Shown here in pieces: positions 7,146 to 50,959 of a stretch of 60,000 nt of DNA. How positions within the stretch are numbered: the first letter of the stretch is position 1; every line of letters begins with the position of its first letter. A program made the position numbers and the translations under genes. This DNA is from Lytechinus pictus (lineage: Eukaryota), in NCBI RefSeq assembly GCF_037042905.1, contig NC_087251.1, positions 33,296,001-33,356,000 on the forward strand. Direction: 5' to 3'. The notes below the pieces were generated by a model, which was given only the letters and a program-made list of their open reading frames with translations, was not told where the DNA came from and made no database searches.

Positions 7146-7312
7146 GTTCAGTGGATCCTCGATCTATCCTATTATTTGTATTCCTAGTCTTGACCATAGG
7201 ACTGTACATCGCCAAGGTTTGTTTCAACATCTGGATGGGTTACGTACCTCCAGCTTACGATGAATTCAGCAACGAGGAAGAACCGGTTCAAGAGAAAGAG
7301 GTTGAACACAAG
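7146..7312 (+). CDS. TMEM63: TMEM63/CSC1-like exon encoding the last TM helix and start of the cytoplasmic tail (SVDPRSILLFVFLVLTIGLYIAKVCF...EVEHK)
   Basis: Polypyrimidine tract + tacag acceptor, AAG|gtaaga donor, phase 1 to 0. Hydrophobic helix followed by an acidic tail. Confidence 0.9.
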
Positions 7313-8939
7313 GTAAGATAGACCAATTTTTTATTTTCTCTGTTCGGTAGCAAAATTATGTTTCTGAGACGTTCGCTCCTGTTTCATTTGCTCCAGGGAA
7401 ATATCCACACATTAGGCAAGTATAAATTCTAGTATATAATCTCTAATCCTATTCCTGACATCATTCTGATTTATTACAACCCTAATCCTAACTCTATATC
7501 TTGAGAGAAATTTAATAGCAAAAGTAAGGTTCCTTAATATTTGCTTCTTTTGCAATTTCTCCTATGAAAAATCCACACATTAGGGGCAATTCTATAAAAT
7601 ATGTACTTTCAACCCCACGTATGTGAGGCCTTCATGAAATTTTCTGTCTCTGATTTCTGGTTCTTATGATAGTCTGTAATGCTCTCAGATGATCATGACT
7701 TGGTCAGTTTATTAAAACTGGAGAAAAATGGGGGTCGGATCTACAAAAAGGTTGACTATATTTACGGAATAGCCCCTAGGCAAACATAATCTAGTCTTAA
7801 TGCCAACCCAAACCCTTATCCTACTCCTCACATCATTCTGATTCAAACTCCTATTACAATCCTAATGTAATCCTATATCTATTAGAATTTAGTGGAGGAG
7901 CAATAGTTGTAGGATCAACCACAGTTTAAATACTGATATTTTTTTTTTTTTTTAATGTGCTCTCCTGGGGCCCATAGCATATAACTTTTGCCGTAAAAAA
8001 CAAAAACTCTGGCAAATAAAATTATGCCATTGAAACTTATACATTAAAAAACTCAGGCCAAAAAATTGTCAGAGTTTTTATGGCAAAAGTTTTATGCAAC
8101 CGATCCCTTGTAGGCAATTTTTAATTCATGTGCATTAATCCTGTTGTGAAGAGACATGCCAGGCAAGGCATCATACATGAAGTATTACATTTGTGACTGT
8201 TTAACTTACAGATACATTTTACCCTTTCAAAGAAATTTTTTTTTCTTTACTTCCTTTTGCTATCACAGAGCACAGTTTTCTCTTATTGAAATCATGCTTG
8301 TTCTATATATTTCATGTTGTTTTCTGTGTATTGATTTATACATATTTTATTTTTCTGTTTCTTCTCCTGGGAAGGCTGAGTGTTTCAGTAAATAAGAATT
8401 TATCAAACAAACACTGGAGGAAAAAGGAGTATGAAAGAAACCATAAACATATATTTGTCTATTAGATTGCTAAGTATCTATATGCCTGTTTGCATTCCAA
8501 TGTTTTTATTATAATTTTTGTTGCGATAAACTTTCGCTATAATCAGAGACTTATGCTCACTTTGAACTAATATTTTATAATCTAATTCGGCCTTCAACAG
8601 TACTGAGTTAAGAGAGAAATTCAATGCAAGAGTAAACATTTTTTTTATAAATACTGTACGAGTTTTATGTCCTTTTATCTCCCAGACATGAATTGTATCT
8701 TATTGTACTCACAGTAATTTCTTAGCACAAGTTGAAAAGTTTGTAGATGAATAATAGAATCTTCAGCTATGAAGTAAAGAAAAAGCAGACACTAGTAATT
8801 AGGTAAAAGAAACAAGTTATTTTTTTTGTCTATATATATGTTAATCTTATATTTTGTTGTTATTTTCCATTAAGTCAGTAATTTCAAAAATGAAGAAAAG
8901 TGAAAAGGTGTAGGCCTTCATGTATGCCTTTTAATTTAA

Positions 8940-10400
8940 GGGACAGACTTATGTCATGTTTTACGACTTTTTAATCTGTAGCATCTTGTAATTATAGAGG
9001 AGAAAATTGTCATAGTGTAAGATCAAGATATTAGAATATTAAAATCTTGTCCAAAGTTATATCAAGAACTCTCAGATGGTAACGTCTTAAATGAATTTCT
9101 TGACTTGTAATCCATTTGTTTGGGAACAGTACCTTCATCCGTCTTACTCATTTGGTAACGATGATGACTTATCTCATCTCGACAAGGTAGGAATCACAAA
9201 ACAATTTTACTAGATGTTGGTTGGAGTGGTCATAACCAGTGTTGGTTTGCCAGGATTACTAAATAAACTGGTTGATTTACTAACCTTAATATATTAACTA
9301 ATATTAACCATGGGTTTGGGGGACTACAAGTTAAAGGCATATGACGTTTGGAAATATAGCTCCTGGACCCTATTGAATAAAAATTACCATTATGGTAAAA
9401 TTGCCATGCAATTGTAACTGGAATCTTTGACAGGTTTTAGATGCAGTGGTGCTCCAAAGTTAGTGATTCCCACCAGAAAATGAACATATTTGAAGTGTTC
9501 AAGTTCTGCCATGTTTTAGTTTTAGTCGGGTGAGGAATATTACATTCAATAAAGTTTTTTTCTTTGGGCTCGCCGAACATTGTAGACAGTGATGTTGTCT
9601 TCATACAGCATGTAGGAGTGCCTTTTGTGGTTGGGTTCATTAATTTTTGTGCACAACTTTATGTCAAGTTCATATATTAATCTTCATATATGTATAATGA
9701 CCTTAGTTTATGGGATTGCATATCACCCAGCTTAAAGCCCAAGGTGGTTTGAAATCATAGTTATTTGCAGATTTTATACATAGATTTTGCTTAATTCAGC
9801 GTGTATATTAAGAGAACGTCCGATAATGAACATTCTCTTTTGCCAGAGGGTACTATATTTATGCTTGTTACCAGGGTCACTGTATTAATGAGCCAACTCT
9901 TGTATATTTTAATTAACATGAAGAGTTGACTCGTTAATTAAAAATAGTGGGCTCATTTATGCTGTAACCTAAGTAACAATTGTCAATTTAGCACACTGAT
10001 AAATGCACACATTCAATATTCAAGGGCGTTTCCTGAATATACATGTACACCCTGAATTAAAACTAATCAGTGCATGAAATTTGCACAAACCATGATTTCA
10101 AACAACGGATATAAAACCACTGTGAATTCAGGCCTATGAGTTGCAAGATAGTCTTTCCTGTAACAAAATAATGTGAAAAGATGTTCAGGCTTCAAAAGTC
10201 AAATTTTCGAAAATCAAATGATCTGAACGATTATCTTACCAATTATCAAAATATGAAGTCATGAAATTCAATTAGAAATAATTTCCTGAAGAGCAATGTT
10301 TCGGAGTGCTGAGAGGTGCAAAAGTTTCAATCGTGCGCAATGTATCTCATGCTTGACTGAACCTCAATATACTTAATCTGAATTTCTTTTAGTCTGTCCC
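8940..10400. mobile_element. Possible Kolobok-like non-autonomous DNA transposon
   Basis: TTAA|GGGACAGACT ... AGTCTGTCCC|TTAT (13-bp inverted match including flank). Contains a decayed palindrome at ~9740-10110. Confidence 0.45.
9130..9186 (+). CDS. Candidate 57-nt cassette exon of TMEM63 (YLHPSYSFGNDDDLSHLDK)
   Basis: aacag acceptor with a weak pyrimidine tract, AAG|gtagga donor, phase 0-0, open frame. Confidence 0.4.
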
Positions 10401-13141
10401 TTATACTCTTTACCATTGAATCATGAAGTTCTCTTGAACTACGTGACAAGTTATATACCATTTTAAAGCTTAGGATATGTTTTTACTTATTATTATAGGA
10501 ACGATCCAAAATGCTTTGCAAACACTCAATCAAGGAAAGTGATCGAGATATGCAGCGTAAAGTAGTTGCCAATGACTTGTGTACAGAAGGTCCATCTCAG
10601 CAGTTTTATTTGTGTTAGTGATAAAAGATTTACTAAGACTCTGTGCCTGTAGTCTAGTCTTGAGCTGGGTGGTGATGTATGGTACTAATTAATGATTCAT
10701 ATGTCTGTGTAATATTTAACCAACTGTTATTTATTTTCATCTTCAAGTGGTATTTTTAGTTGTATTTTCATGCACAATGAAGTGAACGATTAAAAAGCTG
10801 TTTATCATTGAAATGTGAAGCACAGAGGAATGGCATAAGGAAACTCAGTGCTTTTTTGTGACAAACTTGAATTAGCTCACAATTGTCTTCAAATTAATCG
10901 TGATAAAGTGGATTTGCCTTTCCAATGATATGAATTTTATAATTACCTTCATAGGGTTCATTTCATCCTTGGCACAGGCATCAGCCCTCATGGCCATATG
11001 ATCTAATTTGGGCAATACAGATCTCTTTTGAGGCCAATCCATATTATCCAATTAATAATATTTAGTGGTGTGATGAAGGTCATGTGAGCAACATTATGCT
11101 ATGTAATGAGTTTTATGGTCAAGCTAATAAATTATGTGATGTGTGATGGTGGTGTTCAAGCTAGTATGGATAACATATACATGTCTGTAACTGACAGTCT
11201 CAGTTTAAGTAGAGGTATTTTTACATAACTAACGTTCTGTGTTATTTCATTCACTGTCCATTTATTATTATTATTATACAATTAACTTAAAAATGAAATT
11301 AGACTTCTTGAATAAGATGAAGTCTTAAGTACCTTCGGGTTTTTTTTGTTCTTACTAACTAAATTACACATTTCAGTCTTGGTTGTAAGGTTTCAATCAG
11401 CATGTGTCACATACTAAAAGATGGAATATCTAAAAAGTGAAAAATATAGATGTATATTTTCATTAGGTATTTTTTTATATTTATATTTCTCTATTTATTT
11501 TCATTTATTTATTGATTTACTTATTTATGTATTTATTCATTTGCTTATTATTTTTTCTTTATTTATTCAATATTTATTTTCTATCTGTTTATTCATTTAT
11601 CATTATTATTAATACATTTTTTAATTCTTAAATTGTTTTGGGTGTTTAGGAGATTCATCTGCATCCTCCAAGCTTTATTTGACACTTTACTTTATAATAA
11701 TGATCAATGGAATATGTGTGCGTCATTGTATATGTACATGTAGTACACATGAAAGTGCATGCATGAGCAGAAGAGCAGTTTGATATCTGAGCAGCGCCAT
11801 CTGAAGTTTAAAATTTGCCAGTCTGTTTGTGTGGGCACTTCAATTCATTAAAATAATAGTCTGTGTTTCTAATTTAAGTGTTTTGTTGGACAGGTTTATA
11901 ATGTCTAAGGATTAAATACTTTGATGAAATATACATTACAGTAGGGTTCACATTCAACATGCATGACTAAGTCTTGAGATGATAAAAGACCTAATAATAA
12001 TAATCAAGGCAATTGGAATGTTGAACCACAATTATCAATGACCTACATGTACAAGGGTTCACAGGAGAGAGAGAGAAAAAAAATATTGCGTTTCATACAC
12101 AGTTATGTGGAAGACACTTTTTTCATGTGAGAATTTGACTAACATCATACATTCTGTACATAATTTTCATAGACAAAAGATATAGAGGGAAAGTACAGAA
12201 TATATTAGATAGAGGTAACCTTGGCAGAAAGTCCGTGCTTTAAAATGTCTGACCTCCAATTCTCATTAGAGTCTGAGTGTATTTCAATTGGAGACAATCA
12301 GCTAATTTACATCCTAACAACGTGGCATGAGCACCTCGTAATGAAACTTGACATCAGCGTGGTGGTGGTCTGATGCATGTTTGTCACATAGCTTAAATTA
12401 ACCATGGACCGTTTTCCGCTCCTTATTCGTCGCTATTTTTGTCGAAAGAGGGGCCGTGTGTTCAGGACAACATAATGCAACCATTTTAGCATAGATTAAA
12501 GGAGGATGTATTATGGTGGAAAAGACATGGTGTTTCTCATTACCGGGGGGGGGGGGGGGGAGGGATTGTTGCCACCCCCTCCCCAATGGAATCATTTCAT
12601 CAAAGATTAAAGATGGATATATTATATATATATATGTGGAGTAGACCAAGTCCTCATTACCAAGGGTGGGAGAAGGATTGCCCCCGCCCCCACCTCCATG
12701 CCTAGATAAAATGTATTATGTACTTCAAATATTGATTACCAGTATGCAATAAAACCCAAATTAGAATGCTTCTTTTTGTTGCTAAAACTAATGTTTGCTG
12801 GGTGACTTTAATCAATTTTATATTTTAGCATAGATTAATATTTCATGCTTTCATGTTGAAATCATCATGAGTCATTCAGTTCTCATTTCTACAATTTAGT
12901 TGCCAATTTGAGGCTGCTCACTGGCAGGGTATCCCTCTCCCCAAGCCATATATGCTGAATGATTCATTTCCCTGTGTCACCCAGTCTACATGAATCTTGG
13001 TACACATTAGGTTGTATTTCATTATTTCACAGTAGAATGATATTGATTTCAGGCTGTTGCACATGATGCTCCTAAATGAATTTGTATTTGTTTTTTAATT
13101 AGATCCCAATCTTATATAGACCATTCATTTGAATATTTTGC

Positions 13142-14097
13142 TTTTTGTCTCACCTGCATAGCAGAGTGAGACTATAGGCGCCGCTTTTCCGACGGCGACG
13201 GCGGCGGCGGCGTCAACACCAAATCTTAACCTGAGGTTAAGTTTTTGAAATGACAGCATAACTTAGAAAGTATATGGACCTAGTTCATGAAACTTGGCCA
13301 TAAGGTTAATCAAGTATTACTGAACATCCTGCCTGAGTTTCATGTCACATGACCAAGGTCAAAGGTCATTTAGGGTCAATGAACTTGGACCATGTTGGGG
13401 GAATCAACATCAAAATCTTAACCTAAGGTTAAGTTTTTGAAATGTCATCATAACTTAGAAAATATATGGACCTAGTTCATGAAACTTATACATAAGGTTA
13501 ATCAAGTATCACTGAACATCCTGCATGAGTTTCACGTCACATGACCAAGGTCAAAGGTCATTTAGGGTCAATGAACTTTGGCCGAATTGGGGGTATCTGT
13601 TGAATTACCATCATAACTTTGAAAGTTTATGGATCTGATTCATGAAACTTGGACATAATAGTAATCAAGTATTACTGAACATCCTGTGCAAGTTTCAGGT
13701 CACATGATCAAGGTCAAAGGTCATTTAGGGTCAATGAACTTTGGCCAAATTGGGGTATTTGTTGAATTACAGCCATAAATTTGAAAGTGTGTTGGTCTAG
13801 TTCATAAAACTTGGACATAATAGTAATCAAGTATCACTGAACATCCTGTGCGAGTTTCAGGTCACATGATCAAGGTCAAAGGTCATGTAAGGTCAAAGAA
13901 CTTTGGCCACGTTGGGGGTATTTGTTGAATTGCCATCATATCTCTATAAGTGTATTGGTCTAGTTCATAAAACGTGGAAATAAGAGTAACCAAGTATCAC
14001 TGAACATCTTGTGCGAGTTATAGTAGTTTTCAAAATCAGCACTGCTGCTATATTGAATCGCGTGATGCAGGTGAGACGGCCAGAGGCATTCCACTTG
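13142..14097 (+). mobile_element. Helentron-associated (HINE/DINE-like) non-autonomous element with internal tandem array
   Basis: Subterminal IRs gtctcacctgcat (13147) / atgcaggtgagac (14065), a short 5' inverted partner gtgagac, a (GGC)n microsatellite, 5 tandem units of ~162-192 bp, T-rich flanks. Confidence 0.8.
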
Positions 14098-15224
14098 TTT
14101 ACAATCTTGTGGACTACATGTATGTTAAATTTTATAATAGAGATAATGGGAGAGAGAGAGTGAGAAAGATACACACACAAATACAAGAATGCTAGCTGAA
14201 AAACAGGACCTCATTGTTTGTATTTTCCTGAAAAATTGAGTGAAATTTTACTTGTTTTCATTACTTTTGGCATTGACGTCAGGATCACTCATTTTGGAGT
14301 GAATTTAGATGGAACCTATGAATGGTTCACACGAGTTTCACCTGTTAAAAAGAGTGAAATCCAACCAACAACAAGTGCAATTCTCTCGTTATCTGGTGAA
14401 TTTTATTCACTCTCCAAGGAGTGAACTATTCACTCAATTTAGAGCGTATTTGCGATGTTTAAGCGGAGAATGCGATTCAGTATATGGGCTCACCATCTCC
14501 GCAACTCATTCTCAGAAGTGATGTAAAATTGAATCAAATCCTTTTTAGGCCAAAAAAAGTAATCTTCCACCAAGAATCCTTCCTCACCATGACTCACTCG
14601 GCAAAGTGATGGCAGACATTAACCACATTTTATGCATAATGGTCCATTAGACTGTAGAAGGGATAAGAATGAGATTGCATCTGAAATGTCATTGACAAAT
14701 GGAAGCCCACAACATCTGAACATTTCAATAGATAGTGGTATAAACTGTCAGCCATGCATACTGCGGTTTCCTTCCAGTTTATTTCTTAGCACGTTTTAAA
14801 TTTTCTTGAAGTATATTGAATAAGATTGGTGTTTGAGAATGTTGAATGAGGGATTTTTTATGCCCTCATATTCTTAATGATTTACAGTATTTATATAATT
14901 TGAATAATAAATTTAAATAATCCTACTAATATCATGCAATTTAGATGCCTTAATAAAAGTCAGTGCTGCTGTATGTGGCGTCTTTCAGCAGAAATGTCAT
15001 TCAAATTCATTTCTTATCCTCCGTTTTCAGCATATATGGAGAGTGATGTAAGATCCCGCATACATTAATGTCACTAACATACCATGGATCTGACTTTTTA
15101 TCAGCTATACATGTATCTGAAATACTGGGTTGATACATGTCTTACATTTATATTGCACTTGTGTTTTAACATTAAGTTCTTGAATTACTTGTCACTTTAT
15201 TTACTGCTAACTTCACTCATGCAG

Positions 15225-15263
15225 CCAGATGAACCTAGCAGTACAATTCCAGATGAGTTGCAG
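15225..15263 (+). CDS. Candidate 39-nt cassette microexon of TMEM63 (PDEPSSTIPDELQ) with GC donor
   Basis: Branch-point-like gctaac, cttcactcatgcag acceptor, CAG|gcaagt donor (otherwise consensus), phase 0-0, no stop. Confidence 0.55.
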
Positions 15264-17003
15264 GCAAGTGGGATGCTTGTTCTTTAAACTTGTTTTCTCT
15301 TGATTAATCTCTCTTTGATTCAATTGCAACCATATTTAGCATGGACTTTGTAATAATTATCATTCACAACTTTATGTGTATCACCAGGATGCAAATGTTG
15401 ATTTCTGCTAGTCCGTCTTGCACTTGCCAAGATGTGTGTATCAATTATAATACATGTGCTTCTTACAATTTTTCTTTCTCTTCACTAGCTAAGCTTGCAG
15501 ATTTGTGAAGTAGTTTGATTTTGAAATTATAGATTTCTAGGTTGAATTTGTTTGACACAAGAAGAGGAAAAAACAATGTAAGTATGGAGGATGATGGAAT
15601 ATAATTGACATGGTAAAAAAAATCCAGATATGTATAGAAAAATATGAACCAAAAGGAGGTTTCTAGAATTTCATTATGTTACTGCAAAATTGGTTTCAAA
15701 GTTAGTTTTTTTTTTTCGAAATCTCATAAGAAAGAGATTCTCCTGCCTATAATGTGTCCAGGAACATCCAGGATAGTTTTCCATAGATTTTTTTTTCTTC
15801 AGCCTGTTAAAAAGAACGCTGAAAATTTTTAACATTATAAATGAAATGTACATATAGCTTAAATGTACTTTTCACACCATTTGAAACTAAAAAGAAATAT
15901 GAAGTAACCATATGAAAGTTGAGGTAGATACAGAAATATGATGATATTTCAGATCAGCAGATGTCCATGTAGAAAGATGAACCAGTTATGATATTGGGCT
16001 TATGCATTATTTACTAAAAATTATCAAAGTTTAACATAAAAGACCTCATAATAGAAAAAAAAATGGAGGAAGAAATAGATTGGGTATAAATTAAAAAAAC
16101 ATAAAGAACAAGAAGTTTTATTTGACCTTTTCTTCACATTTGCAGAGAAAGGGTCATCTTATCTCATCCTTCAAAAACATGAGAAAATTGACCAAATATT
16201 TGCTCCTCTGCCTGAATACACCAGAATATATAACTAACCTCATGTGTTCCTCTTCTTAACCCCCCCCCCCCCCCTCCCCGTTGGCTATTACCCAACATTG
16301 CATCTCATTTGGTCATTGGATGCAAGGATCTCACCAAATTACTTTGATATTGGTAACTTGCATCAAAGAATACCATGGATCACTTGACTTGCTTCGGCTG
16401 ATGTGAAATGGCTGGAGTAACTCCATCCTCCGGGGTGATCCTCCCCCGGGATACATTCCCTCCTCAAGCAGCCATGACACTTAAGCTGTTCAGTCACAGT
16501 GGATCGTTTTCCTGAGTGTGTGAAAGAAAGAAAGAAAAAAAAAGAGAGATCTGTGCTTACCCTTAAAGGTGTATCAAGACTAGCATAGAACACCCACTGG
16601 GGCATCAGCTGAGTTTCTGCTCCAAAATGTAACAAATAGCCCTACAGGTAAACATTTTGAAGGTTATTTGATCCCCACAAACTTTTATCTCGACCAGCAA
16701 TTTCATATATTATTTATAATTAATTATTTTTTACTGATAAAGCGAAATGGAATTGGCCCTCAAAAAAAATAATAATGCTGTAACTTGCAAAGGAACGACA
16801 AAGCCCTTCAATTCTTCTTAGGTTACATGAATCCCTTGAATTCTTCTTTGGTTACATTTGGACATAAAAAAATATCCTCTACAGAAAATCCCATTTGTTT
16901 TAACCCCCTGAATCTGAACTATTATGTAACTTTCATGATATTTGGATGCATAGAAAACTTCCTAAGATTTCAGGTATTACAATTTTCCAGATAACATTCA
17001 ATG

Positions 17004-17100
17004 CAATGTAAGACTCATATTGTCTCAATGTTACCCTTATATTGAATAGAAATTATGTTAAATGTGAGGGTAACATTGAGACAATATGAGTCTTACATTG
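17004..17100. repeat. Perfect 34-bp inverted repeat (hairpin)
   Basis: 17004-17037 is the exact reverse complement of 17067-17100. Confidence 0.95.
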
Positions 17101-19310
17101 ATTATGTACTATTATGTTAAATAGGTTGCATTATCTGGTAATCCTTAGGCAAGTATGGATGTCATGTTGAGCTTTATTTCTTTCTTTGAATTATGTATTT
17201 ACTTTTCTTTTAAAGAAACTAACTAAGAAAATAAAATTACAATTAATCTTTGCGTAGCTCCTTTACCATTTCTTTTTCTAGCTTCTTTTTACTTAGGTTT
17301 TTACAAGAAAATGTGTGCATTTGATCCCATTTATCTTCTGGCATTTATAAGCTTCCTTATTTTGATATTTTGATTGGTTAATATTTATTCTACATGAGAT
17401 TTCTGCATGGCTTTTTATCTTAAGCTAAGAAAACAAAATGATAAACGTTAATAAAAATCAAAGTGTTTCCAATATAATGTGTTTCTTCTGCATTAGCATA
17501 CTCATGGTACACTTTAAAAATCAATCACTATGTATTGTCACTAAATCTATGCTTGCATCTATTTTTATATGTGAATTATTTATCATACATTTATTTTCTT
17601 ACTGAATATCAAATTATAATATTCTTTTGTATGGATTATTCTTTGTAGCTTTTTGTCCGTAATAATGTAACCATTATATAAGTAAAACAATAATATTTGA
17701 CTATCTTTGCAATTATTCATACACTTAAGCTACATAGTATGCATGGATTTGATATTTTTCCCACTTTACTTATTGATTGCATCAGGTTTATAATGGCTAG
17801 TAAGTTTTAAAAAAATGTTATTTGTCGATTAGGGATTAATGAAAATCAATACTCCCAAAGGCAGTGCAATGAAAACAATTACAAAAGATTGCTTTATACG
17901 ATGTACTTTTTATTCAGAATGAAAGTTGTAACTTATTTTATGCTTATAAAAGGCATGTCTGTCAATTCATTGATAGTTTTTAAAGGTTTGTGCTTGTGTG
18001 TTTGTGAATTATAAATGTAATTTTCAATTTCTAGATTGAAGCTTGCAAATTATTTGCACAGTTTGCAATATCCTTCCTTTTCATCATCACTTGCTAAATG
18101 ATTAGCCAAATTACATGTATTGCACAATGCACATTGTATATTCTGTTTAACATGTATTAAAAATGAGATTGCCGGCTTGTTTGTTTGAACTGATACTTTG
18201 CCTGCAAGGAGAACACTTCAATGATTGTTAGGACTTGGTCGTTCCAGTACCAGGTAAACAACTTCAAACACTCGAATATGAGATGCTTCCATGATGTCTT
18301 GATGGAATATTCATATGTAAACTTAATAGATATCAAAACACAATTGCGTGAAAAAAACATTCAAATAGGGAAACATAACAATTTATATTTTTTTCTATTT
18401 ATTTGTAGCTCTGGTAATTTATTTTCCAGAATTTTCATTTTTTCAGTACCGGGATAACAAAGAGATATGTGAACAAAAATGTTAATGCATGCAGAGACAA
18501 CTGATTCTTAAATACTCTGTAAGAGAGAGAGAGTAGGAGAGAGAGCGAGAGACAAATGAAGAGAGAGATTGAGAGAGAAGCATGATCAAATCAAATACTA
18601 TCCTGATTTAGCTGTAGTAAGAGTGAGATGGTTAGATGGGGGGGGGGGGGAAAGAAGGAGAGAGATGGTGGAAAAGGAACGGGCCTAGAGGTTGTATTGC
18701 TATTCATAGATGAGGCATAACATATCTACTTTGAATATTACCCCCTAGGATTCCTCTATGGAACGCTTCTCTGGTTTCCTGAAAAAAGCATGTCTCCAGA
18801 GGGCCTACTACGCGTAGACTGCATCTTAAAACGGAAAAAAAAGTCATACATCACCTAACCCCCACTCCCAAGCTAAACCGACAAATCAAATTCCGTTTGA
18901 ACAGCCTTAGAATAAGAGTCTAAACATGGGTGTTGCTAGTCTGTTGTGCAGTGGTAGCTCCACCACGGGGACCTCCAGTAATGCATTGTTTTAAATTAAC
19001 GAGGTTTGGCCGCTCGTGTCCCATTTGCACTGCCCTTTTCAGACACATTATTCACAGTCACATAATGAGCTTTAGCGGAAATCCAGCCTGATAGCGCTAC
19101 TAGTGGGTGCTGAATCCAAATTAGTTTGCTTGTTTTCTTATGCTGCTGGCGTACAGTGGATACTGTGCAAACATGGACACTGTCATTTTGTATGCATTGA
19201 TAACAAAGTGTGCTGCTCTGACACTTGTTTCACTTTATAATGCCTTTTTATTTTTATGTTCATCCTTCTATCCCTTCATTTTTTTTTTCTTTTTTGGATC
19301 TCTCGGTCAG

Positions 19311-19385
19311 AAATTTAAACCTTATATTGGCTATGGGACATTGAGAGAAATAGTAGTTCCATATCTACCTCAGATTGTTATTTGA
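19311..19385 (+). CDS. Candidate alternative terminal exon of TMEM63 (KFKPYIGYGTLREIVVPYLPQIVI*)
   Basis: Strong T-rich tract + gtcag acceptor. Phase-0 frame open to TGA, with YGT and PYLPQI motifs. Confidence 0.4.
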   Translation, partial: KFKPYIGYGTLREIVVPYLPQIVI

Positions 19386-19489
19386 GGATTGATCAGTTAT
19401 TTCATTATCAAATCTCTTTCTGAATATAGTAGTGTAGTAATACTTCTGACCAATCCTATAGCAAGATTCTTATTATGCGGAATATAATG

Positions 19490-20500
19490 GCAATTATTTC
19501 ATTTCTACCCTGATAATTTATTCAGTTATAGTCACTGGTAATAGTTTCACATCTGCCCTGGATTATAGTCAGTTTGTCACTTGTAATAGTTTCAAGTCTA
19601 CCCTGGGTGTTAGTCATTGGTAATACTTTCACATCTACCCCGGATAATAGTCAGTTGTTAGTCATTGGTAATAGTTTCAAATCTACCCTGGATGTTAGTC
19701 ATTGGTAATACTTTCACATCTACCCCGGATAATAGTCAGTTGTTAGTCATTGGTAATAGTTTCAAATCTACCCTGGATGTTAGTCATTGGTAATACTTTC
19801 ACATCTACCCCAGATAATAGTCAGTTGTTAGTCATTGGTAATAGTTTCAAATCTACCCTGGATGTTAGTCATTAGGTAAAAATTTCATATCTTTGCTGGA
19901 TAATCAATCAGTGGTTAGTCACAGTTAATAAATTTAGTTTCTCATTGATGATTAGTTGCTGGTAATAATTCAAGTTCTGGCAATAGTTTCACATCTACCC
20001 TGGATAATTAGTCAGTGGTCATTCACTTGTAATAGTGAATAGGATGCTTTTCCAGTAGCTGCCGGTAAACTGTATTACTCTTTCATCTATCCTGGATATA
20101 TATAGCCAGGGGGTTAGTCACTGGTAATTATTTCACATCTACCCTGGTAATTAGTCACTTATTAGTCACTGATGGTAGTTTCAAATCTCCTCTGGATATT
20201 CAATCAGTGGTTAGTCACTGGTAATTTATTTCACATCTACCATGGATAAATTCAACATTGGTCATAGTTTCTCCTCTTCCCTGGTAATAAGTCAGTTGCT
20301 AGTCAGGGATGATAGTTTCACATCTACCCTGGATAATGAGTCAGTGGTCATTCACTTGTAATAGTGAACAGGATGCTTTTCCAGTAGCTGCCAGTAGCTG
20401 CCGGTAAATTGTATTACTCTTACATCTACCCTGGTTATTAAGTAAGGGGTCATTACTGATAAAGTGGTTATTGACTAGTTATAGTTCAGAGTTACCCTGG
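19490..20500 (+). repeat. Minisatellite of 37/48-bp monomers with an 85-bp higher-order core
   Basis: tagtcattggtaata(c/g)tttca(c/a)atctaccc units, with near-identical 85-bp dimers at 19611, 19696 and 19781 and degenerate flanks. Confidence 0.9.
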
Positions 20501-23500
20501 ATATTTTGCCAGCAGACGCGGACTAATATGATAGTTACGTCTACCGTGGGATCAAAGGTTATTGTTTCATCAGACTTGGGTACTAATGACAATCATCCCC
20601 ATATTTTAATACACATTTGCTCTTTTATTCTTCTATTATGTCAAAACAACCATGGAGTAGAGCTTGCCCTCCCTTTTTAGTTTGTTTTTTAAATTTAATT
20701 TTCCCCCCCCCATCTTCTCTCTCATACCATTTTTTCATTCACCTTTCCTCTTCCCTTCCTTCAAGCTAGTATCTCATGTTACACCTTGATAAGTCGATAC
20801 CTTCATTCACCATCCAATGGTACCCTACCTGGAGCTTTTCCACTGCACCATCCTTGTAATGCAATTTTGATTACAGTGCATGGGGTCTATATTGCACAGG
20901 TTTTTGTGAAGCTATGTATCATTAACAAACAACTTTTGTTATAGAAAGCTGAACAATTTTTTTTTACCTGCCAAGTGTCCCCATTTATCCTTTTGACTAC
21001 TGAATTCTGTGATTCCTATAGGGTTTTGACAGGGACTACCCAGTTCCAGTAGGCAATGGGTGAACAACAGAGAGTCCCAATTTATGTGCAAGAGGGAGCC
21101 ATAATTTCAACCACTTAGTCAATATTTTTTTGTAAAAAACCTGTCTGTAATAAAAGATGGGAAACTATGCGATGTTCCAATTTCCAGCCATGATCTCCTC
21201 ATTTGTTCCATTTTCTTGGATTTCAGGGTTGGCAGGTATGTTTCTTTTAACCACCTTAGCTAAAGTTAAAGTATGCATATGTTGGTCTTTTCTTAATTTT
21301 TTATCAAATGAACCGAATTATTTATGTTTCATTATCATGGGGGAGGGGGAAAATGATGGCTTATCAAATTTAATTAGTTTTATTTCTATGCTGTCATATC
21401 TTCTACAAATTGACAGCTCAATTATATTTCCTTCATTGTTACATTTTATCGAATTGCTCAAGTATCTCAAATGAATATGAATCGACACAAAAATGTGTTT
21501 AGACGTTGTAAATTTGCATTTAAGTACTTTTTATTTCCACTGACATTTTCAATTAAAGGAGTTGGGTGATTATTTTGTTCTATATGTTGTGAAAAAATGC
21601 ATAAAGTTGAAATACCACAGCTTGTATAGAGAATTCGACACTTTCTGCTTCTCTACTTGGTATGAATATGTGCGCCTCTGCCTGGAAATTTATCCATTAT
21701 GAATGGATATGACAGTCAGAATACTCATCTCAAGAGCTCATGGACAGGCAACTTGAGAAACGGAACCCCCTGCAGACGACATTGAGGGACGCCAAGGTCA
21801 CAGTCCCATGCAATTACTGATAACTCCCCAAGAAATCAATAATTTATCACGGATGAGGCGATAACTTGCGACTGATCGAATCCCTGCTCACCCTCGTCTT
21901 TCTTGCATGTTGTCGAATCCATCCTTGATTTAGCCTCCCTCATTTGTTTAGTGTTTAGTCCGCTGGGATCCTGCCAGATTCGTCCTGTCATGCCATATTG
22001 ATTTTCTGTTTATCAATGTTTCTTACTCTGCAAAGGAAAAGCTAAATTTAGATTTGGAACGTTTTATAAAAAGCTACATTTGACACAAATTGTGTGAGAA
22101 AATGGAGATTCTAGAATAAAGTATAGTAAGCCAGCAAATTTGTTTTGGTTTTCTGTATGCTTTGTTGATTGCTTACACTTTTTTGTTTGTTTGTTGTTAT
22201 TTTTTTGCTTTTTGGTGGTGTCTTCAAATCAGTTTAGGTTTAAGTTGTGGTTTAAATTAAAAAACAAGGTAATCCAGATTTATTTTACCAGATTACAAGA
22301 AAAATGTCTTTAAATGAAGTGATAGCAGTCTTAACAGTGTGTTCACATATATGTAGTTGAATTATTTAAGAAAACCAGCAACTTCAAATGCAGTCTATAG
22401 AGTGTAATTGGATGTATCCAACTTTGCATTAACGACTTGGCTTGCAGATTGGTTTATGCACGGTGCTGCGGTTTTCATTCATATTGGCAACACGATAATT
22501 GATTCTCTGTTGTATATTGTCTGGTGTATCTCCTTTGAGCTATTCCATGCCCACATTGTTTCTCATTAATTGGATGACATTCTGTATTCTATTATGTTAG
22601 TATGTTGTGGAAGGCTCCGCTTCATCATTGCCAGGCCGAGATGACAGGTTATCTAATGCACCATAAATCACAACCCCCTTGCTTTAGTCCTTTCCTCATG
22701 TTTTTACATTGCCATGGCTTTTGCTAGATTTGGTTTATTTGTATCTACTGCTTGGTTTTGAAATTTGAAAGATTGAGAGATTGTCCTTTTGTGACCTTGT
22801 ATTGATTCTAGCAGTATGTTCATTTTTTTTTTACTTAGGTTTCTGTTATTTTCTGTTTAGTGCTTCATACTTTTATCAGTAATTTTAAATGTTTTCCATC
22901 CCTATGCATTTGTCTCTCACACGTTTTTGTGCCCCCCCCCCCTCTGTATGTCTCGCATTCACTCTCTCTTTTACTTATTCTCTCTCTCTCTATCTCTCTC
23001 ATCCGTAATCTCATTATAACAACTAATAAATGAAATTAAACTTTGATTGGTATTGAATTCTTGGTAAAATAATGTTTTTCTTTTCTTTTTTGGCAGTTTT
23101 CTCTAACAATATCATAGGCTTGCACAACTAAAATTTCAATATTAATTACTTGTTATATCTTATAATAAAATCTAATCATTTTGTATGGGGGTAATGTAAA
23201 AATTGTGTTTGTCCCCCAATTTTCTAGAGATTCATTTTATTTATGTTTAAGTGGTATGGTCTACTCCTTTCATTATCTCAAAAGAATCATTGTCAAAAGT
23301 TTGCCTGAACAATTGGTGATGATGGCAAAAATCATCAAATCATCCAATTGTATTGAAAATATTCCTTTGTATTTGCAGAAATGTTGACAGTCCTTGAGAA
23401 TGGCCTTGGAGATATCCTCATGTTACAAATCTGCCGTAATCTTGAGATAGCCCTGTCCTTTGATTTCTTGAGAATGACCTTAAAGACATTCTCAGGTTAC

Positions 23501-24954
23501 AGAGCTTACATTACCTGGAGATTACCCTCTTATTTTCCTATTTACCCCCCTCCCCCCCCCCCAGTTATCCTCCAATTTCTTGAGGATGTCCTTGAAAACG
23601 TTCTTGAGGACATCCTTTGGAATCCATTGGCAGCTTAAGGTGGTCCTTGACCTTGACCTTACCTTGAGACCACCCTCTCACTCCTCTGCTACCCCAGCTG
23701 TTAACGAATTCCCAGGCAGCATGCCTTGAAGGATCATGTGTTGGTTGCAAGTATACTCAACATTTCATGCTGGATCTTCAATCACTCATCTTTCCTCTTC
23801 ACTTGGGAACTGCTCCTTCCGCTTTGTGTTGTGAAGTATTAGTATAAAGGGACCCATTTCATTGTCAACACCTTCCGTGATTATTTTCTTCATGTCTCAA
23901 GGGTTTCACCCAGTCTGTATTTAGTTAAAATAGGGCAGCTTGTTTTCCTTGGATGAACAAAGAAAAAAGGTGATGAATTCCAAAGAAATCATTAAAATGA
24001 TATTTCTAAGTAAGCAGAAGGTACTATGGTACATGTGGGTGAGCTCACCTCATATTTGATATAGTAGGACTGAAAAATAGAGAACATTAAGTGAAGTAAC
24101 CCATTATTATCTCACGATCTCTGTAACCCATTCACTTTTCTTCTCATGCTCCTTCTCTGCCTTCCTTCTTTTGTCCACCTCGTCACCATCCTTCTGTCCC
24201 TCTATCATTCCTTATTATTTCCACATCTTATCTTCTTTTCATCCTGTGTTCTATCTGTTCCTATTTTTCATCTTCTTCCTCATTCTTTCCCTTCCTTGCT
24301 ATCCTTTCCTGTTTCTCTCTTCATTATCCCCTTCCCTCCTCTTCTCCTATACCACTTATCTCTCCACTACACTCTTTAGATAGCATCTTCTCAAGTTGAT
24401 GTCCTCATTATTTAACACCTTCGTTTTGTTTTGCAACATGTTTGCACTGGCAGATCCTCAGTTTAATTTTGTGTAAAGAGGGTTGAAGTCTAGCAAGAAG
24501 AGGAATAGACACTAGACAGTAGTGCCAATGTAAAAGAGCCTGTTCATGGGATGGGGTGTCCTGTCTGTTGTTTACCCCCCCCCCCCCTCCCCCTCCACTC
24601 CCAATCCTGGTTCTAGCCACCATGTGGAGTTGTTGAGTCTCTCTCACAGTGTAAAATTGATAGCATTTAACCAAAGCAATGAATCATGGAGACTGTGGTC
24701 ATATTATCAACTACACCCAGACACCTTTGCTTTAATAGCATCCAGTAAACCTATCTAAGCTGTGATGTCCCTGTCTCATGCATTTATCAGCAAGCCTCCC
24801 GTATTTCATCATTCACTCTGATTAACCTTTTTTAACTCATGTTTTGGTGTTATTTTTCCCTGCATTTTGTAGTGTTCACATTTTAATCTTCCCACAAGGC
24901 CATTTTTACTTCCATTTTTCTTTTCTCATTGATGTAAACAAATATCAGTTAATC

Positions 24955-25089
24955 CTGTCGGGTACCAATTCACCTCACATAGGTTGAGTGCAGCAAAATG
25001 TGAGTATATTCTTGCTGAAATAAGATGAACCATGGCTGGGATTTGAACCTACGACCCTCTGATAAAAAGATGCGAGTCCGAACCACTAG
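24955..25089 (-). mobile_element. tRNA-derived SINE fragment
   Basis: Minus strand reads tagtggttcggactc...ggtcgtaggttcaaatcccagccatgg (A/B boxes), followed by gctgcactcaacc..gaggtgaattggtacc body. Confidence 0.7.
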
Positions 25090-28000
25090 TTTTTATTTAA
25101 CATTCATCCAGGAATGGTGTCTTTTCGGCAGGTTCCTTTCAACCCCTATGATTAACCAACCCAAATAACGGTTCTTAGCACCCCACCCACACCCCTACTA
25201 CCAGGCTACAGTCACACTTATCAAACCGACTCAAAACCAACCGATGGTATGTCATTGGTAATGAATTATGAGAGTTGGTCAGTCTGGAGTCAGTATCATT
25301 GATGTGACTGTGGCATGGTTATGTTATTGCTTTATGATTGGAACTCCTCACGCAAGAATACCCCCATCATCTTGACTGCCCCTCCTGTAAACACGATAAA
25401 AAAACATCCAAAGATGGTGGCAAATACCAAAGGTGAAAAGTAGAAAACATGGATGAATGCAAAGTGATTCATGGATGAAATTGTAGAGCGAGGCCTGGAA
25501 AAAACAACAACCTGGGATTCTTTTGTGAAGGGGAGTGAAGAGGTTTTTTTATTTATTGGTTATTTTGTAAAGGTGATGCAGCTTGGAAGTTGATCGTGCT
25601 GGTGGATGATGCATCTGGAATGGCGTTATTATCGTCGTTGAATGAAGAAGGAAAGTCAATCGGAATAACAATTCTGTATTAGGTGTGGTTTTCAGTTTTG
25701 CTACACGATTGAATAATTGGACATTCCAGTACTGTTTGAATTGAATAATCTTAGAAAAACCATATTTGAGTTTTAACATGGTATAATATGGATATTAGCA
25801 TATCTATTTCATTTACCATAGTTCATACTAAATTCATTTTATGGAGTTTTTAAAGATAAATTCAGTATAGTTTTGAGGTAATGGAGAATGTTCATGTACA
25901 ATACCCAAGGTTTGTAGCATTTAAAGGAAGACATTTTGCCAAATTTCATAAGAGAAAGCAAGAACAAAATTTATCCTCTATGAATGTACTAATGTGAGTT
26001 CTTCATAGAAAATGCAGATATTTTTCACAGGCAGCCTCTTCAACTTTCATCCAGGTGTTATTTTTCAGTTCATTTAACAAACATTTATAAAATCATTGTT
26101 CTCATTGATCATTTGTCTATACATGTATCTATTTTCTTTGTTCTGAAAGGTGATAGGAATAAAAAGATGCAAAAATTCTACCCACTGTGGAGTTTATCTG
26201 TCACAACTGGAGAGTTCATCAGAATAAAATGGGAGCAATCTAGAAGTCATAAAAATGGATGCCTGATTCGTGCCTATATCTCTATCACAGCATGCTCTAT
26301 AATAGTTTTGCATTATATGTCACACCCCCCCCCCCCCCAGAACCAATTTTGGGGCAATTTAGCTTTACACTGTAGGCCAAAATTGCCTTTTGATTTTTTA
26401 TGTCATTCTTTGTCACATTGCGTGAGAGGAAATGATCTTGTTGAAGGGGGTTAGGAAATATTACTAGTTTCCTCATTCTTTGGTAATATTACAACTGCAC
26501 ATGTTCTGGGGAAGTTTGTGAGTCAGTTAAAAAAAGAATTGAGAAATGTGTCCCTATCAAGTTTTGCTAGACTGTAAAAATCTGAATCTCACAGAAATAT
26601 CAAAATTTCTATGATGATAAGCTGAAATATGATTTTTTTTTCCCCCTTTACTTACATCTTGTAAATACTTGGAATGAAATTCACAAGTTCTTGTCATGCC
26701 CCGCATAATAAAAAGCTTACACCTAGAACTCGGATTAGCACAATCAGTGAGCAGTTTAAAATCAAAACTTAAAACGCATCTATTTAACAAGCATATCAGG
26801 AGTTTATATGTATATTTTTGTTGAATTGCTTATGCACTCTACAAATCTACTATATTATGTTATTTATATATTTACTAAAAAAGAGAAATAAACACATGTC
26901 TGAAATTGACATTTAGGAGGGTAATGGAAGCATGCATTATTCATACAGAGAAAAGAGAACATTCTGTTCAACTTCATCCATTGCGGACTCATTTGTGCCA
27001 CCATGTCTTGATTAAGACATGCATTTTTCAGCTCTGATACATGAGATCTCCTCAATTATTATAAAAGGACTGGATTTTTTTATCCTCTTGGTAGTAAATG
27101 CACTTTCATGCAGGAGAAATAGGATATTCTGGCCATTATGAGTGAAAATTAAATTCTTGAAATCATGACATGAATTTGAGAGATGTGAAGTGATATGACT
27201 AGAATTTGATATGAGCATTGTGTTGTGGGAAGAGCAGAACGTTGATGAAAGGAGACATCATTCAAATGCTGTGTGCTGTTTGAAATAAAATGACAGTTAT
27301 CAGCCCTAGCTCTCATGGTTACCACTCCCCCCCCCCCCCATAAACAAGTAAGTTAGTAATTTAGTGATTAATTCAAATAAATAAGAAAGTAATTTTGTAA
27401 GTAATAAGGTAAGTAAGTAGATAAGTGAAAAGATGAATGAATAAACTCATTGATCAGTTATTACAAAGATAAATATCTAAATAAACAGATAAATAATCAT
27501 AATCATATGATATATTTTTAATGGGAAAATGTCTCAATATAAATCATAAGGTTAAGGAGGATTTTATTTATGTGTGTTTTATACATTTTTCTGAATTTAA
27601 ATAACTTTGTTTTAATCAATACAATAGTGCAATTCTGAGGGCAATGAGTAGCAGCTGGATATGTCTGTATTTTCCTTCTGTTTCTGAAGTGGTAAAGAAA
27701 ACAGTATACCTGCTATTTATCATCATTTTTTAATCATTTCATTAGAACTAAAAAAAGGCTACAGAATCAAGTGGGACCTACTTGCTGTACAAGATTTGTG
27801 TCATATTCTTTGACCTACATTTAATCAGGAGTTCAGAGTACAGGCATCTCTAAGTGCACAAAGAAGGATAAGTCCTACCCTCTAAAGATCACTATCTTTA
27901 CATTAGATTCTCTGGTGACTTCAGGTTTTTTTAAGACTGTCATGTACAGAAGATAGTTTTTGGTCGGATTGTGTAGTAAAGGCAAGAAGATGGGAGGCCT

Positions 28001-29489: not shown

Positions 29490-30290
29490 CTCCATGGAGG
29501 ATTGGGGTAAGATGTAAATATTGATGGAGAGGGAGACAGTTGGAGATAGAGATAGAGAAGTAGAAACAGGGAAAGGCGTTTTATAATGTCTCCTCCCCCA
29601 CCCCACCCCCATGTGCGATGTAAACGTATTATTCAGTAGATTTTTATTATAACATTGAGAATTGAGGGAAGAAGTAAATATTGATGGAGATGGAGGCAGT
29701 TTGAGATAGATAGAGAAGAATAAACAAAGAACTTTTTTTAATTTCCCCTATCCCACTCACCCCCCCCCCCCCTCTATCCAATCCACTCTGTTCTTAATAT
29801 AGACATATTATCCACAATATTTTTATTGTTTTATTGTCTGTGAGATTCAGATTTTTACAGTCTAGCAAAACTTGATAGGGACACATTTCTCAAGTTTTAT
29901 TGTCCATGAAGGGTCAGGGAAGATTTATATATTGATGGAGAGGAAGGCAGTTAGAGATAAGAGATAAAGAAGTAGAAATAGGAAAGTTTTTTTTATGTCA
30001 CCTCCCCACCCTACCCCACCCCATCCACAATGTAAACATGCTTTTCAAAAGATTTTGGTTTTATTATACATGGAGGGTCAGGGAAGATGTAAAAATTGGG
30101 AGAGAGAGAGAGAAAGTTAAAGATCGAGATTCAGAAGTAGAAATTTTATGAGTTTTTTTATGTCTCTTCCCCATCCTGCACCTGAACATATTTTTCAGTT
30201 GATTTGGGATTTACGGTGTATGTACATGAAGGATCAGGGACTATGTGACATTGATGAGAGAAACAGAGAAAGAGATAGAGAATTAGAAAC
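29490..30290 (+). repeat. Degenerate tandem repeat, ~5 copies of a GA-rich unit
   Basis: aagatgtaaatattgatggaga...gagatagagaagtagaaa recurs at ~29510, 29670, 29920, 30085 and 30240. Confidence 0.7.
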
Positions 30291-32017
30291 AGTGAGAAGC
30301 CTGTTAAGCCTTGTTTTTCATTTGCAAGTTTTAAAAAAGGGGAGGGGTATTGCAAGATGTGTACCCCCCCCCCCTCTCAAATAAACAAGTTAAGAGGAAA
30401 TAGCAAGGTGTGCTGTTCATGTATCTTTGCCAACATTCACAGCCTTGGATGTTTTGCATATCTGTTGCAAAAAAACACTGATCAGTGACAATAAAGTATG
30501 TATGGGAATGAAGGTGTTTCATTTGAATGCGGCTGTGAATTTGATACAGGGAGCTTCATTCAACAGTTACATCCCTGTGACAGTATGAGTGTCAATGACA
30601 TGCAGAGCCTTGGATGCTAGTGGGAATTAGTATCCCATCATGCATTGTTGATTTAGCTGTCGTCTGTTGAACTCCACCATCAATGTTGTGAGAAAGGATA
30701 TGCACTTGGATTTTAACATTTTCCCTCTTCCTTTCTTTTTTCTCAGATTCTTCTGTGTATTCTCATGAATACTATTCTTTCTCTTTTTTTTCTCTCTTTC
30801 TTTTTATTACAACTTTTATTGAAAATGAAATTGAATTAAAATTGAAAAGTTATGAATATTCATAAAGTCTTCAGATATTTTATTAATGAGCAAATGAAGA
30901 CAAAATTTAAGCTAAGAGGATTCAAGGCTCATTCAGCCAACAATATACATGTAATTATATAAAATATTGTCTCCTTTGAAAATATACAAAATATAGATCT
31001 GCTTAAGAAATAGAAGAAGATGTGGAGCTAATAAGATCATAGATTTTGAGTCATAAAAAAGTTAGGAAAAAAATGCAGTGTTATAAATATTTCAACATTT
31101 TGATGTACTCTCCATTTGAATTAATGAAATTACTGCTCCCCATGTGCCCATTAACTACTGTCACTGCATAACTTGTGCGTAATAGGATGGAACAAAATTA
31201 TTTAATCATGTGAGAGAAAAAAATGGAGTTATGCTTTTATGAATGTGCCTTCGTTACCGAGGACAGGATGAAAATGGAGGGTGCTTTGTGCATTTAGGCA
31301 TCATATTATATGACCGGCCTTGTTATCGCTAAGTTAATCAGGTTGTTTATTCCTCTGTAACTAATGAAGGTAAATGAAATATGAGCCCTTGGAGAATATG
31401 AATGGTATTTGAGCATGTTAATTAATTCCTCAAATTATGGGAAATGCATTGGATGGGTCATGTATCATTAAGTATGGATTGTGGTGTGTGATCGTGTCTT
31501 GCAGTGTGCATTGCATTCCATCCTCTAATCGAGAAATGAAACATTTTGCATATCATATTTTGTGAATTTATTCTATAAGTTAACTGAACTTTGGTTTGGT
31601 TTGCAGATATGCAGGGGTTATTAAAGACCGAATGTACTTAATGTTGATGAATACTATTTGATTATGTATCAAATTAATATATACATGTATCTCAAAGACT
31701 TAAGGTTCAGTAAATGTCAGTTTTATTACATTGATGAAAAAAGATGGGTTTCAGTTATGTAGTCATTGTAAGTATGAATATATTGATGTTGACTCTTGAT
31801 TTTATTGTATTATTTTATTTTAACTTATTATTTGAACTATAATGCATCCTATGTGACCATCCTTATTTGATGGATGCACATTTCTTTGTCATCCTCTGAT
31901 TTTCTGAGGGGAAATTTAAATTGCGATGTATGCGATCAATGTCTGCAATCATTGGTAGATATGAAATAATTATTTCAATGAATGAGGTCTATTTATATTC
32001 CATTACATAGAGACAGT

Positions 32018-32403
32018 AAATTGCCAGTTCGTCTACTGCCAACTAGTCCACTCACCACATGGTCTACTTTCATGTAGTGTAATGCCATTCCGTCCATCAA
32101 CATTTGGTCTAACAACCATTTTGTCCAATCTTCTCTTCGTCTAAACACCATTTCATGTATGACCATTGTGTCTCATAACTAGTTGGTCTAATATCCATTT
32201 CATTTTCATTCATTTTGCACAATCAACACTTAGTCCAATTAGAACAAATGGTATATGGACTAATGGCTATTGGACCAACTGGTTATTAGACGAAATGGTG
32301 AGTGGACGAATTGGCAATTAGACCATGTGGATAGTGGACAAACTGATGGTAGACCAAATGATAGTAGACGAGTTGGCAATTGGACGAATTGGCATTAGAC
32401 AAA
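32018..32403. mobile_element. Foldback-like MITE built of short gtcta/tagac subrepeats
   Basis: aattgccagttcgtctact ... agtagacgagttggcaatt inverted ends. Decayed relatives at ~740-1200 and ~39900-40205. Confidence 0.7.
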
Positions 32404-32637
32404 TTTGAAAAAACCACATTGAGACAATCTATAATCATTTGTTTGCATTTTCTCTCTTTTTTCTCTCAATCTCTCGGATTCATCCCCTCTTTATCTCACT
32501 ATCTCTCACCCTTCCTATTCACACACTCACCCAAACACACTCCATTTCTGTCCATCTGCTTTCCTCATCACTCCCTTTCTTTCACCCCTTATCTTTCTCT
32601 TACCATCCCTCTATCTCCTCTCTCCTTCATATTCCAG

Positions 32638-32805
32638 GACTTTGTGCCGGACGTCCTGATGGAAGATGCCGAGGCCGGAGAAGGGTCGGGCATGGGTCAG
32701 ACGGGGGCCAGAGGTCACCAGGCGTACGGTACCATGGACCACGGCAGCGAGCACATCTCTTATCAACCCCAGGTCGACACAGAATCGTCAGAACAAGAGG
32801 AATAG
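32638..32805 (+). CDS. TMEM63: TMEM63/CSC1-like terminal coding exon (DFVPDVLMEDAEAGEGSG...YGTMDHG...SSEQEE*)
   Basis: Very long CT-rich tract + ttccag acceptor, phase 0 matching the 7312 donor, GC-rich coding-like composition, TAG stop. FVPxVL and YGT resemble TMEM63 tail motifs. Confidence 0.85.
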   Translation, partial: DFVPDVLMEDAEAGEGSGMGQTGARGHQAYGTMDHGSEHISYQPQVDTESSEQEE

Positions 32806-50858: not shown

Positions 50859-50959
50859 ATGACCACAGACGCGGGTTTTATAGCGGGTGTAACAGTGGGC
50901 GCGGCTATCGCCTCAGCATTCTTATTTGCCTGCCTCTACTCCGCATACAGGGCCGTAAT
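50859..50959 (+). CDS. First coding exon of an unidentified gene with an N-terminal transmembrane/signal-anchor helix (MTTDAGFIAGVTVGAAIASAFLFACLYSAYRAV-)
   Basis: aaatcATGa start context, in-frame upstream TAA at 50799, a ~22-aa hydrophobic stretch followed by R, AT|gtgagt donor (phase 2), CpG-rich surroundings. Confidence 0.75.

Follow-up and report, generated by a model that had tools for sequence, protein, structure and literature searches.

The locus and its gene

The window, a 60,000-nucleotide (nt) stretch of the sea urchin Lytechinus pictus genome (assembly GCF_037042905.1, contig NC_087251.1, positions 33,296,001 to 33,356,000 of the forward strand), holds the 3´ end of the Lytechinus TMEM63/CSC1 gene, and our subject is the alternative exons for the cytoplasmic tail of the encoded protein that lie in the last intron of this gene. 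The exons and RNA signals of the gene described below are all on the forward (+) strand, and coordinates are window positions unless stated otherwise. Over 55 amino acids, the translated exon 7146-7312 matches the L. variegatus RefSeq protein XP_041468379 at 100% identity (the best of 11 hits, from 21 candidates). The L. variegatus CSC1-like protein matches mouse TMEM63B with an E value of 1.5e-187 (phmmer) and contains PF13967, PF14703 and PF02714, the full OSCA/TMEM63 domain architecture. An AlphaFold model of the form in which 7146-7312 is spliced directly to the distal last exon has the TMEM63 fold, aligning to 9N95 with Z 44.1 (root-mean-square deviation (rmsd) 3.8, 564 residues aligned) and to 8EHX with Z 42.5 (rmsd 3.4, 594 aligned). 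When the genome was searched with the full-length protein, all 20 matches fell within one locus, so this is the only TMEM63 gene detected in the animal.

The penultimate constitutive exon (7146-7312) encodes the last transmembrane (TM) helix and the tail linker, and ends in a phase-0 donor, AAG|GTAAGA, that is common to all tail forms. In models that skip both alternative exons (P0012, P0017, P0018 and P0019), it is joined across an intron at 7313-32637 to the distal last exon (32638-32805; 55 codons and TAG); RNA runs X15 to X18 contain all sampled words of 32638-35000. The size and phase given for this intron in a preliminary description of the stretch were verified in the sequence (25,325 nt, phase 0, following introns of 1,483 and 4,879 nt). 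It is the largest intron measured in the gene, yet no outlier; 5´ of the window the same gene has introns of about 12.1 and about 11.1 kb, so intron size alone is a weak signal.

Within this intron, five segments had been proposed as hidden alternative tail exons: A (9130-9186), B (15225-15263), C (18209-18253), D (19311-19385) and E (23565-23729). Each is indeed preceded by AG and open in phase 0. On the 3´ side, GT bounds A and C and GC bounds B (CAG|GCAAGT), and D and E run to a stop codon. All five lie downstream of the last TM helix, which ends near residue 714-719 of the AlphaFold model, and would alter only the cytoplasmic tail, as had been stated.

Two alternative tail exons in annotated urchin proteins

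Two of the segments, A and B, occur in annotated proteins of two urchin genera; C, D and E are in none of the 457 proteins fetched, so the idea of hidden tail exons holds for two of them and an array of five or more is not borne out. Among 11 named models (five from L. variegatus, two from L. pictus and four from Strongylocentrotus purpuratus), A is present in five and B in four. A with the distal exon, and the distal exon with A skipped, are found in both genera; B with A skipped is found in all three species; and A with B is found in L. pictus (P0160). All four combinations are therefore present among public models, in keeping with the combinatorial use that had been suggested. B is joined to the distal exon in none of the 11 named models, which come from three species annotations, and in neither of two further echinoid proteins. 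Neither A nor B is present in 38 models from Diadema, starfish, sea cucumbers, a brittle star, crinoids and hemichordates. In a 5-mer search of the tails of 457 fetched proteins, A and B each also matched one unrelated protein by chance, and a search of short fragments with other tails (one hit from four candidates) yielded no further tail. One L. variegatus model, isoform X5 (P0046), stops inside the last TM helix, its final 10 residues being unrelated.

A and B are already in RefSeq, within automatic predictions named 'CSC1-like' or 'calcium permeable stress-gated cation channel 1-like'. Title and term searches, which left subscription journals mostly uncovered, found no paper on the urchin A/B tails or on a C-terminal alternative last exon of TMEM63, and a term search of a 2026 review (PMC13494684) found nothing on splicing, autoinhibition or the C-terminal tail.

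Exon A (57 nt, 19 amino acids), present as a single copy in a genome search, has the properties of a cassette: AG and GT boundaries, a preserved frame, and gene models that include it as well as models that skip it. S. purpuratus A differs from the exon in the window by one substitution and a 2-codon indel that leaves the frame intact. With A included, the protein gains 19 residues, and the tether from the last TM helix to a motif in the distal exon (see below) grows from 23 to 42 residues. A tether of 22-24 residues is seen in each of the 38 models of other ambulacrarians and in amphioxus skip forms, with a wider spread across animals. Just after the A donor, the stretch at 9193-9312 contains 11 GU-rich 4-mers, which puts it in the top 0.6% of the intron's 120-nt windows; it is a possible splicing-regulatory element, recognized post hoc. 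Control of A by ESRP was considered and set aside: the GU-rich stretch is there, but the gene is unnamed in the sea urchin list of Esrp-dependent exons. In the accessible part of that study, the gene appears in the expression table only, at a low 3-4 cRPKM (corrected reads per kilobase per million mapped reads), and is unnamed in the five other readable supplementary files (PMC5703972). Among the 25 longest of 41 inverted repeats we found no notable long-range pair flanking A or B; a 33-nt pair matching at 76% (9193-9225 and 14360-14392) is probably due to chance.

Amphioxus models carry an 11-residue insert directly before the motif, at the same junction as A, in 4 of 15 cases (P0064, P0168, P0170 and P0173) and lack it in 10 (models compared: P0167, P0171, P0174 and P0175). 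Anchored at the exon start, A scores 20 against this insert, more than any other of 1,170 AG-started intron peptides (shuffle p ~0.001; the next best, an antisense peptide, scores 11), and S. purpuratus A scores 23 (p 0.0005-0.0008). The likeness was first spotted by eye, and so post hoc, and the insert is known from protein models. The absence of an A-like insert from the 38 models of groups between urchin and amphioxus counts against homology.

Exon B, also single copy in the genome search, comprises 20 codons and TAA when used as a last exon (15225-15287), or 39 nt (to 15263) if spliced at an internal GC donor. A branch-point-like CTAAC is located at 15207-15211, 18 nt before the acceptor. 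The models that end in B are XP_041468381 (L. variegatus X4), XP_063957509 and XP_063957510 (L. pictus X1 and X2) and XP_011673868 (S. purpuratus X4). The Lytechinus B tails equal the translation of the window; the two L. pictus models, which end exactly as that translation does, are same-species evidence and were not counted as independent conservation. Residues 1-17 are identical between Lytechinus and Strongylocentrotus, the last three differ, and the stop is at the same codon (21).

B had been put forward as a cassette with a GC donor. A consensus donor, GCAAGT, is there in the sequence (15264-15269; predicted, and in phase 0 with the distal exon), and is the sole sense-strand match in the intron to the pattern [AC]AGGCAAGT, which has zero antisense matches, but in all four models that contain B it is the last exon, read 7 codons past the GC donor to the stop. 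The models and the sequence thus give B the features of a skipped terminal exon, namely its own acceptor, an in-frame stop, and skipping in the long form. Candidate poly(A) signals for a B-ended RNA lie within 16090-17455 (ATTAAA at 16090, AATAAA at 17230 and 17450). The possible B 3´ untranslated region (UTR) also contains a tight inverted repeat at 17004-17100, before the AATAAA at 17230, with 48-nt arms that are 90% complementary, and an A-rich tract is present near 16520.

The distal exon carries a conserved motif that B lacks

The distal exon begins with the conserved motif FVPDVLME (codons 32641-32664), in which FVPDVL matches AQVLQD of mouse TMEM63B and the Leu at 32656-32658 corresponds to mouse Leu776. 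Of 118 homologues whose tail could be used (from the 120 best hits), 110 have the motif pattern, several of the eight misses being near variants, and in a 90-sequence alignment the motif Leu is kept in 89 of 90 sequences and the Val at a fraction of 0.90. No part of the tail is more conserved than this motif. On a profile of it, true motifs score at least 12.5; the distal exon scores 24.0, B scores 0.5, and A, C, D and E are negative. We rejected the idea that B is a duplicated motif copy, suggested by a resemblance of its IPDxLQ to starfish FIPDVLQ, since a score of 0.5 is reached by 3-6.5% of controls.

In mouse TMEM63B, the AQVLQD segment lies against Y276, V278, L281 and V354 in structure 8WG4, and the L776A mutation or loss of LQD results in a constitutive scramblase with phosphatidylserine exposure. 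This tail brake was described in 2026 and, in the accessible part of the study, from engineered mutants only (PMC13332465). Mapped via bird and rabbit sequences, the mouse contacts correspond to urchin Y271, I273, L276 and A345, and L776 to L750.

AlphaFold models of the two ends differ in the same region. With A skipped and the distal exon used, residues 741-750 have a mean predicted local distance difference test (pLDDT) score of 82 and the rest of the tail 31-55, whereas the tail of the B-ended form is below 50 with no ordered island. Aligned to mouse 8WG4, the distal form extends to residue 752 of the model and 778 of the chain, the expected register (Z 34.5, rmsd 3.5, 633 aligned), and the B form stops at 725 and 743 (Z 38.6, rmsd 3.0, 628 aligned); with most plant OSCA chains, alignment reaches about residue 750 only for the distal form. 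In these models, the urchin motif superposes on the docked mouse autoinhibitory motif and the B-ended form has nothing docked there, docking being judged by pLDDT and by superposition of the models.

RNA reads over the intron

RNA was assembled over 7100-27099 from four of 21 runs (X1, X15, X19 and X21), at about 6% of each raw run. An X1 contig (depth 10.5) ends exactly at 7312, as an assembly-graph branch point would. An X15 contig (depth 39.5) matches to 7313 and then continues for 4.3 kb off the assembled stretch, which would fit the skip form, as the distal exon starts with the same G; 32638 itself is beyond the assembled stretch. Between 14075 and 16510, X15 covers B with unspliced pieces of depth 5-8. 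Its unspliced depth in repeat-poor bins is mostly 2-10 up to 17771 and mostly below 2 beyond, and a nascent-RNA gradient would look alike. The bins of A and D are masked by repeats, and no RNA end was called near the hexamers at 16090, 17230 and 17450 in the four repeat-swamped runs. C and E were unseen as spliced exons in these runs, and so was B, which makes the silence weak evidence. The case for A and B is based on gene models and conservation, not on observed junctions. A dispersed repeat at 13142-14099 has internal units of 163 and 192 nt and draws thousands of one-strand RNA reads from elsewhere in the genome.

A proposed scheme of two choices and four tails

We propose that the tail is set by two independent choices that together give up to four tails, an explanation we consider fairly probable as a whole. 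A and B are very probably real alternative exons, and B probably acts mainly as a terminal exon. Both choices are there in the public gene models. The first is whether cassette A is in or out, inclusion lengthening the tether to the motif. The second is whether the transcript ends at the distal exon, with the motif, or at B, with a 20-residue end that lacks it. Once the B acceptor has been used, the only onward route would be the GC donor followed by a 17-kb intron, and cleavage at 16090, 17230 or 17450 could win, making B a skipped terminal exon produced by intronic polyadenylation. A terminal B is favoured because its sole donor is GC and stands ahead of a 17-kb intron; human intronic polyadenylation is favoured by large introns and weak donors, according to the accessible parts of two studies (PMC8559711, PMC3708835).

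The B-ended protein would be without the tail brake and might be a leakier, or a poorly expressed, channel or scramblase, and A would tune how easily the brake engages while the brake itself is kept. By analogy with the mouse protein, de-inhibition of the B-ended form is possible, though doubtful. The broader proposal that urchins switch TMEM63 autoinhibition by splicing, B being a natural, regulated isoform without the brake and a more open channel or scramblase, appears unlikely at present. A may be an old deuterostome exon for tether length, homologous to the amphioxus insert; this is a lead, and to combine it with brake switching by B would be improbable. The preliminary description had suggested variants in trafficking or gating, which by the same analogy is plausible and can now be attached to one motif.

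Several observations weigh against the two-choice explanation or the role it gives to B. No splice junction was seen directly, and none from 7312 was present among the 15 of 335 joints listed, which are dominated by repeats. The B bin has depth 0 in X1, 0.06 in X19 and 0 in X21, and use of B was seen in none of the four runs. The L. pictus annotation breaks the gene in two at an 11-kb intron and has no distal-exon form; its model of the first half, P0158, runs through a GT donor to its end, an artefact that could mimic a terminal B; and its models (P0158, P0159 and P0160) are probably not independent of this genome. All three amino-acid differences in B come after the GC donor (p 0.03, with 7 of the 20 residues in that part), and the 13 residues before it are identical in 13 of 13 positions. 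The AlphaFold contrast is partly built in, as homologue columns match the distal tail only. Finally, in the accessible part of the mouse study, among the paralogues only TMEM63B scrambled in Ba/F3 cells (PMC13332465), so the urchin protein may not scramble.

One alternative accepts a terminal B and makes it a dose attenuator, the motif-less protein folding or trafficking badly and so lowering the amount of channel. We regard this as a tentative possibility. In the accessible part of the mouse study, Ala mutants of the motif reach 24-40%, and deletions 70-75%, of the wild-type surface level, and the authors see a role for the Leu776 contact in folding; the same mutants are strongly active despite their reduced surface level (PMC13332465). 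The B model has a mean pLDDT of 77.7, against 80.1 for the distal form, but the identity of 17 B residues in two genera suggests constraint on the peptide or on the RNA.

A second alternative, and the main rival, returns to B as a 39-nt cassette followed by a GC-AG intron. The terminal models would be annotation read-through, the motif would be in every mRNA, and A and B would alter the tether only. The perfect phase-0 GC donor, unique in the intron, the identity of all residues up to that donor, with every difference later, and the donor read-through of P0158 in the same annotation all fit this explanation. We think it rather unlikely, since no named model or further echinoid protein joins B to the distal exon and the stop codon has the same position in both genera. 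B may be used both ways, as cassette and as terminal exon.

Candidates C, D and E

The chance level for such segments was estimated from 100 local Markov shuffles of the intron, with loose rules like those of the preliminary description. AG-to-stop segments of at least 20 amino acids number 42 in the intron against 39.2 ± 6.5 in the shuffles; D and E are among these, and thus need no explanation. Cassette-like segments number 7 against 1.35 ± 1.24, a count that no shuffle reached. Three of the 7 use B's donor, A was missed by the filter, and the remaining 4, C included, are a mild excess. Splice-site scores, computed from approximate general frequencies, provide a rough ranking only, as the true acceptors of A and of one constitutive exon score below 0.

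Conservation was assessed on proteins only. By this measure, the cross-species check came out in favour of A and B, which are kept across genera, and not of C, D and E, of which no 5-mer was found in any tail of the 457 fetched proteins (many of them tail-less fragments). Candidate C is 45 nt long and in phase 0, with CTGAT at -19 and the donor CAG|GTAAAC; its bin depth is 0-0.17 in the four RNA runs. C is probably no exon, and we put the chance that it is real as small. D is no shuffled copy of the last exon, given its negative motif score, and a repeat origin does not fit the three candidates, as C and E are single copy and only the downstream flank of D is a repeat. Just after D come an 85-nt tandem repeat and a degenerate 48-nt continuation (19529-19921 and 20131-20345). 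In all likelihood C, D and E are plain intron sequence, and it is likely that there is no further exon among them.

A larger array, in which C and perhaps E (through an internal donor at 23639) are rare, tissue-specific exons that the annotation missed, seems quite unlikely to us. After B's three segments are removed, 4 cassette-like segments against 1.35 correspond to p of about 0.05 by a Poisson estimate; C has its branch-like CTGAT, a 43-nt AG-free zone and an upstream TGC; and B too is invisible in four runs, so the silence of C is weak. Yet no 5-mer of C, D or E turned up in the tails of the 457 proteins, depth in the C and E bins is 0 in X1 and below 0.2 in X15, the E acceptor is a poly-C run, and D and E belong to a class found at chance level. 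That A and B are functionless splicing noise, as their absence from the 38 other ambulacrarian models and from direct view in the RNA assembly might suggest, is very improbable, both peptides being kept between two genera and A staying in frame through a 2-codon indel.

Comparison with known systems

The urchin motif and AQVLQD of mouse TMEM63B (8WG4) share their position after the last TM helix, a Val-Leu core, conserved contact residues, and the docked place in the model. The two systems differ in how the motif is lost, through engineered deletions in the accessible part of the mouse study (PMC13332465) and, in the urchin, through a natural alternative last exon known from gene models. A second parallel is with exon 4 of vertebrate TMEM63B, which the accessible part of PMC9830214 describes as a small cassette in a cytoplasmic loop that alters surface level and response. 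In the urchin gene, the corresponding position, which is upstream of the window (contig positions 33257623-33257664), is occupied by a 42-nt cassette; the Lytechinus peptide is without an RXR signal. Models that include and models that skip this cassette are found in urchins, a sea cucumber, a crinoid, a hemichordate and birds, a distribution suggesting that the alternative event is old.

With terminal exons formed by intronic polyadenylation, as described in the accessible parts of PMC8559711 and PMC3708835, B shares a large host intron, its own acceptor, the ability to be skipped, a stop codon, downstream hexamers and a weak donor. B mixes the skipped and composite classes of such exons, having both its own acceptor and an internal GC donor, and its poly(A) site is a candidate only.

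Dscam-type arrays consist of duplicated, mutually exclusive exons. The placement of several optional exons in one large intron is alike, but in the urchin only two are supported. We rejected a mutually exclusive array of duplicated exons here, A and B occurring together in P0160 and the exons being without likeness to the distal motif. Elsewhere, models from Mytilus, Haliotis, scallops and a freshwater mussel have optional inserts in this tail linker too, at the next junction upstream (for example P0094, P0184-P0207, P0384-P0397 and P0440-P0442), Haliotis with two different 12-residue versions. From these sequences, splicing of the TMEM63 tail linker looks recurrent in invertebrates.

Other features of the window

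The intron before the large one contains an element at 5387-5808 that resembles a miniature inverted-repeat transposable element, with 66-nt terminal inverted repeats, and the large intron contains a 65-nt inverted pair, 3.2 kb apart (26531-26595 and 29837-29901). The probable first coding exon of the next gene is located at 50859-50960, in a CpG-richer region, with an ATG, a hydrophobic 34-residue stretch like a single N-terminal membrane anchor, and a GTGAGT donor. A search of Rfam returned no match.

Implications

The splicing pattern itself, one cassette and one intronic last exon, is ordinary and already annotated. The novelty lies in the connection with an autoinhibitory motif that was found recently, and in a natural isoform without that motif. 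The motif is kept across animals and, in the model of an invertebrate orthologue, docks at the same place. With four natural tails, two of them without the motif, the urchin would provide a test of ancestral autoinhibition and of its control by RNA processing, in a model embryo that has one TMEM63 gene.

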